Source of the DNA: Escherichia coli | Lineage (GTDB): Bacteria > Pseudomonadota > Gammaproteobacteria > Enterobacterales > Enterobacteriaceae | Length of the DNA: 64,000 nucleotides | Assembly (NCBI RefSeq): GCF_965641715.1 | Contig: NZ_OZ282453.1 | Strand: one strand, 5' to 3' | Shown: positions 48,011 through 51,977 of the stretch, one piece after another | How the letters are laid out: the number at the start of each line of letters is the position of its first letter | How positions within the stretch are numbered: the stretch's first letter is position 1 | Notes under the pieces: generated by a model | Database searches by the model: none | The model's input: only the letters and a program-made list of their open reading frames with translations | Told to the model about the DNA's origin: nothing | Program-made: the position numbers and the translations under genes

Positions 48011-48805
48011 TTGAAAAAACTGAAACTGCATGGCTTTAATAATCTGACCAAAAGTCTGAGTTTTTGTATTTACGATATCTGCTACGCCAAAACTGCCGAA
48101 GAGCGCGACGGTTATATTGCTTATATCGATGAACTCTATAATGCCAACCGTCTGACCGAAATCCTGTCAGAAACCTGTTCCATTATCGGGGCCAATATTC
48201 TTAACATCGCCCGCCAGGATTACGAACCACAGGGTGCCAGCGTCACTATTCTGGTGAGTGAAGAACCGGTCGACCCGAAACTTATCGACAAAACAGAACA
48301 CCCCGGCCCACTGCCAGAAACGGTCGTTGCCCATCTCGATAAAAGTCATATTTGCGTACATACCTACCCAGAAAGTCATCCTGAAGGCGGTTTATGTACC
48401 TTCCGCGCCGATATTGAAGTCTCTACCTGCGGCGTGATTTCTCCGCTGAAGGCGCTGAATTACCTGATCCACCAGCTTGAGTCCGATATCGTAACCATTG
48501 ATTATCGCGTGCGCGGTTTTACCCGCGACATTAACGGTATGAAGCACTTTATCGACCATGAGATTAATTCGATTCAGAACTTTATGTCTGACGATATGAA
48601 GGCGCTGTATGACATGGTGGATGTGAACGTCTATCAGGAAAATATCTTCCATACCAAGATGTTGCTTAAAGAGTTCGACCTTAAGCACTACATGTTCCAC
48701 ACCAAACCGGAAGACTTAACCGACAGCGAGCGCCAGGAAATTACCGCTGCGCTGTGGAAAGAAATGCGCGAGATTTATTACGGGCGCAATATGCCAGCTG
48801 TTTAA
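48011..48805 (+). CDS. speD: S-adenosylmethionine decarboxylase proenzyme, TTG start
   Basis: 264 aa (M)[24 protein letters not shown]; aaggag SD upstream. Confidence 0.9.
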
Positions 48806-48808
48806 CGG

Positions 48809-48837
48809 CTCTGGCGGAGCTCCCAGGCTCCGCCAGA
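48809..48837. terminator. Bidirectional hairpin between speD and yacL (ctggcggagc / gctccgccag) followed by tttatttac
   Basis: 10-bp inverted repeat plus T-run. Confidence 0.65.
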
Positions 48838-48842
48838 TTTAT

Positions 48843-49205
48843 TTACTTCTGCTGCACGAAATTGCGGTAAGCCGCCACCACCTGCAGAAAATCCTCAACG
48901 CCGCATAGCGACAGGCTTTCTTCGTCGTAGTAGTTCATCCCCTCTTCCATTTCATCGCCAGCGAATTCCAGTTGATTGGCGCGAACCATCACCTCTTCGC
49001 CGTCCATCCATAGCGTATACTCATGCCCTGCCCGCTGCCAGGAACGTTCGCTACCTTTCAGTGCGTGCGCTGCTTGTTCCACTTCATCAAGCAAGGCCAG
49101 GTTTTCTTTCACCTCTTCATTAAACCAGTGCCCGACCACTTCATGCCCCATGGACATACGCACCTTTACCACTCCGGTAATATCGCGCAGAAATTCGTAA
49201 TCCAT
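48843..49205 (-). CDS. yacL: UPF0231 protein YacL
   Basis: ORF 48843..49253; 120-aa product from [22 protein letters not shown]. Confidence 0.85.
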
Positions 49206-49311
49206 AGTGTGTTCCTCTGCTCCCGGCAATGCGCCGAAATCGCATTGCGCCATTGATGTAATTATCGCAGCCTTACCGGAGAAAAACAGCGGAACGGCGA
49301 TGGTTTAGAAA

Positions 49312-49345
49312 TAAAAAATGCCCGGGAATCTCATTCACCGGGCAT
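49312..49345 (-). terminator. acnB rho-independent terminator (atgcccgg...ccgggcat followed by TTTTTTATTT on - strand)
   Basis: hairpin plus U-run read on the reverse strand 35 nt past the acnB stop. Confidence 0.75.
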
Positions 49346-49379
49346 TGTGTCGTTTATGCGCAGCGCGTGCGCTGACTTT

Positions 49380-51977
49380 TTAAACTGCAGTCTGGAAAAT
49401 CACACCATCGGCTTTTTCAGTGTACTGAGAAAGCTGGTTGAAGTTCAGATAACGGTAAGTATCAACGGCTGTTTTATCTACCTGCGCCACGTAGGTCTGG
49501 TACTCTTCCGGCGTCGGCAGTTTGCCAATCAGCGCCGCAACAGCAGCCAGTTCCGCAGAAGCCAGGAAGACATTCGCGCCAGTACCCAGACGGTTCGGGA
49601 AGTTACGGGTAGAGGTGGAAACCACCGTTGCACCGTCCGCCACACGCGCCTGGTTACCCATACACAGGGAACAGCCAGGGATCTCGATACGCGCACCACT
49701 CTTACCGAAGACGCTGTAGTAGCCTTCTTCGGTCAACTGTGCGGCGTCCATACGGGTTGGCGGTGCCACCCACAGGCGGGTCGGCAACTGGCCTTTATGC
49801 GCATCCAGCAGTTTACCCGCAGCACGGAAGTGACCGATGTTGGTCATGCAGGAACCGATAAACACTTCGTCGATCTTCTCACCCTGTACCGCAGACAGCG
49901 GACGCGCGTCATCCGGGTCGTTCGGAGCACACAGGATTGGCTCTTTAATATCCGCCAGATCGATGTCGATCACTGCCGCGTATTCCGCATCTGCATCGGC
50001 TTCCAGCAGCTCAGGATTAGCCAGCCATTTTTCCATGCCCTGAATACGACGTTCCAGGGTGCGACGATCGCCGTAACCTTCCGCGATCATCCACTTCAGC
50101 AGGACGATGTTAGAGTTCAGGTATTCGATGATCGGCTCTTTGTTCAGCTTGATGGTACAACCGGCAGCAGAACGCTCGGCGGACGCATCGGTCAGTTCAA
50201 ATGCCTGCTCAACTTTCAGATCCGGCAGACCTTCAATTTCCAGAATGCGACCAGAGAAGATGTTTTTCTTGCCTTTCTTCTCAACGGTCAGCAGACCTTG
50301 TTTGATCGCATACAGCGGAATGGCGTGTACCAGATCGCGCAGGGTGATGCCCGGCTGCATTTTGCCTTTGAAGCGCACCAGAACGGATTCCGGCATATCC
50401 AGCGGCATTACGCCTGTTGCGGCTGCAAATGCCACCAGACCAGAACCCGCCGGGAAAGAGATACCGATCGGGAAACGGGTATGGGAGTCACCACCGGTAC
50501 CGACGGTATCCGGCAGCAGCATACGGTTCAGCCAGGAGTGGATTACGCCGTCACCCGGACGCAGCGACACACCGCCACGGTTCATAATGAAGTCCGGCAG
50601 CGTGTGGTGCGTGTTCACGTCAACTGGCTTCGGATACGCCGCGGTGTGGCAGAAAGACTGCATCACCAGGTCAGCCGAGAAGCCCAGGCACGCCAGGTCT
50701 TTCAGTTCATCACGGGTCATCGGGCCTGTGGTGTCCTGAGAGCCTACAGAAGTCATTTTCGGTTCACAGTACGCGCCCGGACGAATGCCTTTCACGCCAC
50801 AGGCACGGCCTACCATTTTTTGCGCCAGCGAGAAGCCGCGATCGCTCTCAGCGACATCTTTCGCCTGACGGAACACATCACTGTGCGGCAGACCAAGTGC
50901 TTCACGCGCTTTGGTGGTCAGGCCACGCCCGATAATCAGCGGAATACGGCCGCCAGCACGCACTTCATCAATCAGCACGTCGGTTTTCAGTTCGAAGGTC
51001 GCCAGCAGTTCGCCTGTTTCGTGGTTACGCACTTCACCTTTGTACGGGTAAACGTCAATCACGTCGCCCATGTTCAGGTTAGAGACGTCGACTTCGATTG
51101 GCAGTGCACCCGCGTCTTCCATCGTGTTAAAGAAGATGGGTGCAATTTTACCGCCGAGGCACAAACCACCGCCGCGTTTGTTCGGCACATGTGGAATATC
51201 ATCGCCCATAAACCACAGAACGGAGTTCGTGGCGGATTTACGCGATGAACCCGTACCCACAACGTCACCGACGTACGCCAGCGGGAAACCTTTCTGTTGC
51301 AGAGCTTCAATCTGTTTGATCGGGCCAACAACACCTGGCTGGTCTGGCTCAATACCTTCCCGGGCGTTTTTCAGCATCGCCAGCGCGTGCAGTGGGATAT
51401 CCGGGCGTGACCACGCATCCGGTGCCGGAGAAAGGTCATCGGTGTTAGTTTCGCCAGTGACTTTGAAGACGGTAACGGTCAGTTTTTCAGCCAGCGCCGG
51501 GCGATTCAGGAACCATTCGGCATCCGCCCAGGACTGCATTACCTGCTTCGCATATTCGTTGCCTGCTTTCGCTTTCTCTTCTACGTCATAGAAGTTATCG
51601 AACATCAGCAGTGTGTGAGAAAGTGCTTTGGCAGCGATCGGTGCCAGTTTGGCATCATCCAGCGCGTCGATCAGCGGATGAATGTTGTAACCACCCTGCA
51701 TGGTACCCAGCAGTTCGATGGCTTTTTCCGGAGTCAGCAGAGGGGATTTGGCTTCGCCTTTAGCGATAGCAGCCAGGAAGCCTGCTTTGACATAGGCGGC
51801 TTCATCGACGCCTGGGGGAACACGGTTGGTTAACAGATCTAACAGGAATTCTTCTTCGCCCGCGGGCGGGTTTTTCAGCAGCTCTACAAGTGCGGCCATT
51901 TGGTTTGCATCCAGGGGTTTGGGCGCAATCCCCTCAGCGGCACGCTCAGCTACGTGCTTACGGTATTCTTCTAGCAC
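49380..51977 (-). CDS. acnB: Aconitate hydratase B, GTG start
   Basis: ORF 49380..52130; 865-aa product from (M)[20 protein letters not shown]; GAGGAG SD 7 nt before GTG 51977. Confidence 0.95.

Follow-up and report, generated by a model that had tools for sequence, protein, structure and literature searches.

Non-ATG start codons in the segment from cdaR to pdhR

The window, i.e., the whole stretch of 64,000 nucleotides that was analysed, is a segment of the E. coli chromosome running from cdaR to pdhR and corresponds to positions 120-184 kb of K-12 in reversed orientation. We mapped onto it 140-nt start probes taken from the curated annotation of K-12 MG1655 (NC_000913.3). The initial annotation had proposed non-ATG starts for speD, acnB, panC, hrpB and pcnB, with alignment to curated orthologs as a check, and all five of these firm calls fall on the same base and the same codon as the curated K-12 start (Table 1). 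The GTG of fhuB, which was absent from that list, is a further non-ATG start. In the same fhu region, fhuA carries a 734-bp frameshifting deletion that is absent from all 5,426 complete E. coli genomes.

Table 1. Genes of the window that are assigned a non-ATG start codon, with the upstream in-frame codons that a longer reading frame would use.
Gene	Coordinates	Strand	Length (aa)	Start codon	Shine-Dalgarno sequence	Upstream in-frame starts (extra codons)	K-12 match
acnB	49380..51977	-	865	GTG 51977-51975	GAGGAG 51990-51985	ATG 52130 (+51, longest ORF); 52004 (+9); 51998 (+7)	b0118
speD	48011..48805	+	264	TTG 48011-48013	AAGGAG 47994-47999, core 11 nt from start codon; contains speE stop TAA (47993-47995)		b0120
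panC	33876..34727	+	283	GTG 33876-33878	TAAGGAG, contains panB stop		b0133
usher (yad-type operon)	27411..30011	+	866	TTG 27411-27413 (probable)	AGGAA 27400-27404 (weak)
pcnB	23745..25142	+	465	ATT 23745-23747	GAGGTG, four nt upstream	TTG 23724 (+7, longest ORF)	b0143
hrpB	18337..20766	-	809	GTG 20766-20764	TGGAG, six nt upstream	ATG 20811 (+15, longest ORF)	b0148
fhuB	10161..12143	-	660	GTG 12143-12141, overlapping fhuD stop (GTGA)	GGAGGT		b0153

Including the usher, non-ATG starts were found in 7 of the 52 genes (13.5%), which is within the expected 12-18%. Published shares for E. coli are about 12% (PMC9825163) and about 17% (83/14/3% for AUG/GUG/UUG; 10.1101/063800). A regional enrichment of non-ATG starts was rejected, as the binomial test was not significant in either direction.

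Choosing the longest open reading frame (ORF) makes 17 of the window's 52 genes too long, or about one third. The over-extensions listed in the initial annotation were all borne out: besides acnB, hrpB and pcnB (Table 1), the long ORFs contain extra codons in cdaR (6), btuF (9), erpA (11), fhuC (14), mrcB (5), thpR (71), dksA (6), hpt (25), gcd (6), cueO (13), yacC (57), yacL (16), lpd (21) and pdhR (11). These longer ORFs are artefacts of a rule that takes the first start codon after a stop.

Conservation of the start codons

The start codons vary little across the Enterobacterales. The GTG of acnB occurs with an identical Shine-Dalgarno (SD) sequence in all five other Enterobacterales loci, and in Yersinia an in-frame TAA lies six codons upstream of it. 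Among metagenome contigs, hrpB starts with GTG in 41/41 (24/24 distinct contexts), and 14 of 26 contexts carry an in-frame stop six codons before it; pcnB starts with ATT in 92/92 (42 distinct contexts), about half of which (22/42) are missing the upstream TTG. Such in-frame stops in other genera, or the absence there of the upstream start, exclude the extensions of acnB (Yersinia), hrpB and pcnB. The start of panC is GTG in 47 of 48 contigs. That of speD is TTG in 19/19 loci of the enterobacterial type, and several Methylococcaceae have a TTG at the corresponding position, while many Pseudomonas loci have a GTG one codon further upstream. K-12 and strain H22 share the start of fhuB. Although H22 is the complete E. 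coli genome that diverges most (91% identity over a 501-nt hrpB/thpR query), its hrpB shows no change between a point shortly before the candidate ATG and codon 20, and is thus uninformative on the start of this gene.

Protein families give the same picture, although neither the NCBIfam models nor the calls made by PGAP are independent of the K-12 annotation. When the long ORFs were scanned with equivalog profiles, position 1 of the profile aligned to the short start, i.e., to residue 52 of acnB (TIGR00117), 16 of hrpB (NF008662) and 8 of pcnB (NF008634). TIGR03331 covers residues 3-261 of SpeD, and NF007865 aligns 1-660 to 1-660 of FhuB. The structure 6HEG in the PDB (809 aa) begins with MSSLPVAAV, which is the short start of hrpB, whereas PcnB constructs in the PDB begin at residue 28 and are uninformative on the start. 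For hrpB, we found no direct experimental evidence for the GTG start, and scanning the spacer between thpR and hrpB for promoters detected nothing on the hrpB strand; the cross-genus tallies provide added comparative support for it.

Shine-Dalgarno sequences and published initiation data

The initial annotation had described a recognisable SD sequence at each of its non-ATG starts. This proved right for the six starts matched in K-12 (its five firm calls plus fhuB), whose duplexes with the anti-SD have energies of -6.2 to -10.6 kcal/mol; the SD of the usher is weak, and the case marginal. Random GTG, TTG and ATT triplets of the window have a median duplex energy of -2.2 kcal/mol, and 4.9% of them reach -6.2 and 0.9% reach -8.7. 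The median of the non-ATG starts is -8.7 kcal/mol, against -4.3 for the 39 ATG starts of the window (Mann-Whitney p=0.005). This agrees with a published trend in which weak start codons are made up for by stronger SDs (PMC5622118). Three of the genes (speD, panC and fhuB) are distal in their operons, and their ribosome-binding sites overlap or abut the stop of the upstream gene (TAAGGAG for speE/speD and panB/panC, GTGA for fhuD/fhuB); from this arrangement we infer that termination of the preceding gene and initiation at these three sites are probably coupled. The initiator fMet-tRNA reads near-cognate codons on the 30S subunit, and a stronger-than-average SD site would position the ribosome and thereby partly offset the weaker codon.

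All experimental initiation data come from K-12 derivatives, i.e., from another strain, yet over the 140 nt around the start they agree with the window at 94-100% of positions (100% in speD, acnB, hrpB and pcnB, 96% in panC, 94% in fhuB). Initiation profiling and N-terminal proteomics had also been put forward as checks, and the published data back three of the genes. INRI-seq gives peaks at the annotated starts of acnB (412-493 CPM), panC (149-244 CPM) and speD (35-61 CPM), and Ribo-RET gives one for acnB (191; PMC9825163 Table S2). The supplement of TRAINSPOTTER, in which panC is the only one of the six K-12-matched genes present, reports the N-terminal peptide from the panC GTG in K-12 (PMC13245402). 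No peak was found at the annotated starts of hrpB, pcnB and fhuB with either INRI-seq or Ribo-RET (PMC9825163), which fits weak initiation or low expression and does not count as positive evidence. Overall, we consider it very probable that these are genuine near-cognate starts of ordinary, well-known genes, several of them housekeeping genes: GUG in acnB, panC, hrpB and fhuB, UUG in speD and probably in the usher, and AUU in pcnB.

Alternative starts

Some of the annotated short starts could be wrong, with translation beginning instead at ATG or TTG codons that lie in frame before the annotated starts of acnB, hrpB and pcnB (Table 1). No stop intervenes between these codons and the annotated starts, and two of the three genes, hrpB and pcnB, are without a footprint at the annotated position. 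We regard this as extremely improbable, since the upstream candidates lack an SD (+1.3 to -3.4 kcal/mol in acnB, -2.4 in hrpB, +0.4 in pcnB), are in other genera either missing or separated from the gene by an in-frame stop, and lie in N-terminal extensions that the family profiles leave uncovered; moreover, the GTG of acnB carries strong footprints and Table S3 of the INRI-seq study contains no upstream alternative initiation site for these genes (PMC9825163). The comparative data already refute upstream starts in large part. It is also possible, if somewhat unlikely, that initiation takes place at extra or alternative in-frame codons downstream, the non-ATG codon being one of several starts. 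A +116 ATG proteoform of PanC was found beside the GTG form (PMC13245402), two bands of poly(A) polymerase I (PAP I) have been discussed, as has a promoter that lies downstream of its AUU (PMC2939334), and an internal start is known for mrcB, another gene of the window. In pcnB, a conserved ATG or GTG precedes TVIPREQH at about codon 28-29, with a Met directly before this motif in most contexts outside E. coli, and the sigma-S promoter pS1 lies inside the gene. However, such starts would add isoforms and not replace the annotated ones: the GTG-initiated peptide of PanC was directly observed (PMC13245402), and the peptide that follows the ATT of pcnB is conserved in all 42 contexts, which implies that it is translated or otherwise constrained.

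For the usher, a TTG start had been given as possible. Upstream of the signal peptide (KSRIPKKTLLAACCALFYSGNSSA), the sequence offers no canonical start (ATG, GTG or TTG) other than the TTG at 27411, and an in-frame ATG first appears within the mature N-terminal domain. The profile NF007337 matches residues 3-863 with its positions 2-864, which places its beginning at most one residue from the TTG, and in strain A30 (99.5% identical) PGAP starts the gene at the corresponding base. The reading frame, the logic of the signal peptide and the A30 annotation speak for the proposed codon; its SD is weak, with a duplex (-4.3 kcal/mol) that is equalled by 17% of random triplets. Given this weak SD, a start codon that varies among alleles (TTG, GTG, ATG) and the three pseudogenes of the same operon in A30, translation could begin at a different near-cognate codon in the vicinity, or the allele could be expressed poorly or not at all. 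We find this unlikely, as it would have to be reconciled with the position of the profile and with the INRI-seq peak at the GTG of K-12 htrE, which lies at the equivalent place (PMC9825163). From its sequence context, the usher probably starts with UUG.

Conserved weak codons of pcnB and speD

According to the literature, a poor AUU codon would limit expression through discrimination by initiation factor IF3; the missing INRI-seq and Ribo-RET peaks at pcnB are consistent with this, though no proof of it. The AUU start of pcnB goes back to Binns & Masters 2002, as cited in a passage of PMC2939334, and is also documented in 10.1101/063800; according to the same passage, that work showed experimentally that the very poor AUU keeps PAP I scarce. 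In pcnB, the SD, the AUU codon and the next 36 nucleotides or so (about 12 codons) are almost invariant across genera, including at synonymous sites. Judged by this pattern, AUU initiation could be controlled by the block, acting as a binding site or as a structure. The initiation regions of pcnB and speD show no excess of RNA structure relative to shuffled controls (z +0.55 and +1.32, respectively). A small predicted hairpin that pairs the SD of pcnB with codons 2-3 is within noise, and both of its arms are invariant. Purifying selection generally favours AUG, and yet these weak codons are deeply conserved, which raises the idea that the UUG of speD and the AUU of pcnB are regulatory devices and not merely tolerated weak starts; we hold this to be very doubtful.

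Comparison with known systems

The initiation site of speD recalls the polyamine modulon, whose members include genes with UUG or GUG starts (cya, spoT, cra, uvrY, frr, gshA) and in which polyamines stimulate translation through the UUG/GUG codon or a distant SD (PMC4405209). It shares with them a UUG start and a distant SD, a resemblance in sequence only. By analogy, these features could make the synthesis of S-adenosylmethionine decarboxylase responsive to polyamines. The gene is not mentioned among those of the modulon in PMC4405209, and a literature search for speD with a UUG start returned nothing relevant. The AUU-initiated genes of E. coli are infC and pcnB; the ATT at 23745 is that very pcnB case, with no difference, and the only AUU start of the window.

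The yad/htrE operon of K-12, which encodes fimbriae of the chaperone-usher type, occupies the same site (folK to panB) with the same gene order and also has a non-ATG usher start, whereas the window carries a divergent allele, with no blastn match to the K-12 yad genes and a TTG instead of the GTG. The usher of strain GF4-3 is a third allele and starts with ATG.

The biology of these starts restates known facts, i.e., that about one in seven E. coli genes starts with GUG or UUG, that pcnB starts with AUU, and that weak codons come with stronger SDs. The start calls of the initial annotation are trustworthy, and their practical value lies in the quality of the annotation. As is already known from K-12, the non-ATG starts of the window are evolutionarily conserved, are present in the curated annotation and occur at the normal genome-wide rate. 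The window belongs to a different E. coli lineage than MG1655 (best matches 99.2-99.5%), but speD, acnB, panC, hrpB, pcnB and fhuB all agree with the curated K-12 genes in the base at which they start, in the start codon and in the SD, and nothing of substance differs between the two sets of starts apart from the lineage.

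Non-ATG starts in the window and in K-12

When a 140-nt probe around each curated K-12 MG1655 start, with the start at its centre, was mapped to the window, the five non-ATG starts firmly called in the initial annotation (speD, acnB, panC, hrpB and pcnB) fell on the same base and codon as in K-12 in 5/5 cases. That list stood for the genes that it named and match K-12, and missed a sixth start, the GTG of fhuB, which has the same codon in K-12 and strain H22. The claim that long ORFs (opening at the first start after a stop) overextend cdaR, btuF, erpA, fhuC, mrcB, thpR, dksA, hpt, gcd, cueO, yacC, yacL, lpdA and pdhR was borne out for every gene, the excess being 5 to 71 codons. 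The long ORFs of acnB, hrpB and pcnB are likewise too long, by 51, 15 and 7 codons; NCBIfam equivalog profiles begin at their residues 52, 16 and 8, the same boundaries as in the comparative evidence.

Coordinates of start codons and other features of the window
Feature	Position	Strand	Remark
speD start	TTG 48011	+	same base and codon as K-12; preceded by AAGGAG
acnB start	GTG 51977	-	same base and codon as K-12; preceded by GAGGAG
panC start	GTG 33876	+	same base and codon as K-12
hrpB start	GTG 20766	-	same base and codon as K-12
pcnB start	ATT 23745	+	same base and codon as K-12
fhuB start	GTG 12143 (12141-12143)	-	overlaps fhuD stop (GTGA)
Usher start	TTG 27411	+	
panC codon 117	34224	+	equivalent of the internal +116 ATG reported for K-12
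speE/speD overlap	47993-48013	+	
panB/panC overlap	33858-33878	+	
pcnB near-invariant block	23735-23785	+	
Fimbrial operon	25952-32934	+	between folK and panB
fhuA with deletion	15262-15387; junction 15308/15307	-	relative to K-12 fhuA
Genes across 48011-51977			speD (+), yacL (-), acnB (-)
Ends of stretch collinear with K-12			cdaR 1265 (-) to pdhR 61383 (-)

Published K-12 experiments bear on several of these starts. Initiation profiling by INRI-seq (PMC9825163, Table S2) shows the annotated start as a peak for acnB (412-493 CPM, plus Ribo-RET 191), speD (35-61 CPM) and panC (149-244 CPM), but gives no start peak in INRI-seq or Ribo-RET for pcnB, hrpB or fhuB; in Table S3 of that study none of these genes has an alternative start upstream. 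Deformylation-assisted N-terminomics (PMC13245402) detected the peptide from the panC GTG start, and also a proteoform from an internal ATG at +116. For HrpB, crystal-structure entry 6HEG is the 809-aa product of the GTG start.

Conservation across genera

In one genome per species, scanned for the SpeD motif HGFNNLTK, TTG stands at the E. coli position after a GGAGG-type Shine-Dalgarno sequence (SD) in all 19 enterobacterial-type loci, among them Photorhabdus, Yersinia, Klebsiella, Enterobacter, Pectobacterium, Rahnella, Budvicia and E. albertii. Several Methylococcaceae loci share this TTG; in many Pseudomonas loci a GTG lies one codon upstream of that position, and in Bacillus and Paenibacillus the codon is mostly an ATG, further upstream. 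Five of the speD loci also include acnB, always with GTG and the same SD (5/5), and in Yersinia an in-frame TAA lies six codons upstream of this GTG.

Metagenome contigs, many of them enterobacterial, were retrieved with the PcnB motif TVIPREQH. They carry GTG for hrpB in 24/24 distinct contexts (41 contigs; N-terminal identity down to 78%), and in 14/26 contexts an in-frame stop six codons upstream excludes an ATG extension. For panC, GTG is found in 47 of 48 contigs. The pcnB ATT is present in 92/92 contigs (42 distinct contexts), always after GAGGTG. In 22 of the 42 contexts the stretch from the upstream stop to the ATT holds no canonical start, so conservation does not extend to the TTG that E. 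coli has at -7 codons.

Across the 42 enterobacterial contexts, the pcnB SD (GAGGTG), the ATT and the ~36 nt that follow it (TTTACCCGAGTCGCTAATTTTTGCCGYAAGGTGCTA) hardly vary, synonymous sites included, and identity falls to 73-82% directly downstream. This pattern suggests a constraint at the RNA level on the AUU initiation region. RNA folding gave no more structure for the pcnB and speD initiation regions than for shuffled controls. The AUU start, as Binns & Masters 2002 is cited in PMC2939334 and 10.1101/063800, limits PAP I and keeps this toxic enzyme scarce. The conserved speD UUG, by analogy with the polyamine modulon (PMC4405209), or else the invariant pcnB block might be used for regulation, which we consider quite improbable.

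The fimbrial usher and the genomic setting

The chaperone-usher operon is a divergent allele: K-12 yadN-yadC genes give no nucleotide match to it by blastn, and only 419/5,426 genomes cover it to at least 80%. In the usher ORF the next in-frame ATG lies past the signal peptide and within the conserved mature domain; no canonical start other than TTG therefore yields an exported protein. The same base is the PGAP start in strain A30 (99.5% identical), and profile NF007337 starts at most 1 residue away. The start tentatively proposed initially is probably right, but its supposedly recognisable SD is weak (AGGAA, -4.3 kcal/mol), which makes it the least secure call. The codon differs by allele: TTG in the window and A30, GTG in K-12 (htrE, with an INRI-seq peak of 8-13 CPM in PMC9825163, Table S2) and H22, ATG in GF4-3. 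In A30, the closest strain, three fimbrial genes are annotated as pseudogenes, while the window ORFs are intact.

The window is collinear, in reversed orientation, with ~120-184 kb of K-12. The window is matched in 5,425/5,426 complete E. coli genomes, with top identities of 99.2-99.5%. No complete E. coli genome matched any of the tested segments of at least 6 kb above ~99.5%, the best strain changes by segment (GF4-3, ES5, A30), and ET350 is 100% identical over a 501-nt hrpB/thpR segment. The source seems to belong to a recombinant lineage absent from the RefSeq complete genomes. Its fhuA (ferrichrome and phage T1/T5/phi80 receptor) has a clean 734-bp deletion (K-12 fhuA nt 81-814) with no microhomology at the junction, shifting the frame and leaving a 41-codon ORF; fhuCDB downstream is intact. 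An 80-nt junction probe matched across the junction in 0/5,426 complete E. coli genomes, so the deletion is apparently private to the strain.

Shine-Dalgarno strength and probable translational coupling

Non-ATG codons start 7 of the 52 genes (13.5%), and published figures for E. coli are about 12-17%. Their number does not exceed chance, but the individual sites do. The recognisable SDs ascribed to speD, acnB, panC, hrpB and pcnB are borne out: together with fhuB, these K-12-matched starts range from -6.2 to -10.6 kcal/mol in anti-SD duplex energy. Of random GTG/TTG/ATT triplets taken from the window, only 4.9% are as strong as -6.2 and 0.9% as strong as -8.7.

Initiator tRNA reads near-cognate codons, and strong SDs place the 30S subunit. 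The genes speD, panC and fhuB are distal in their operons and their initiation regions overlap the upstream stop, an arrangement that makes termination-coupled initiation, and hence translational coupling at speE/speD, panB/panC and fhuD/fhuB, likely. At speE/speD and panB/panC, the upstream TAA lies inside the SD (TAAGGAG), as is conserved across genera.

The median SD energy is -8.7 at non-ATG starts versus -4.3 at 39 ATG starts (Mann-Whitney p=0.005), in agreement with the report that weak start codons are offset by stronger SDs (PMC5622118). All of this matches the K-12 annotation and published work, and the finding is therefore already known.
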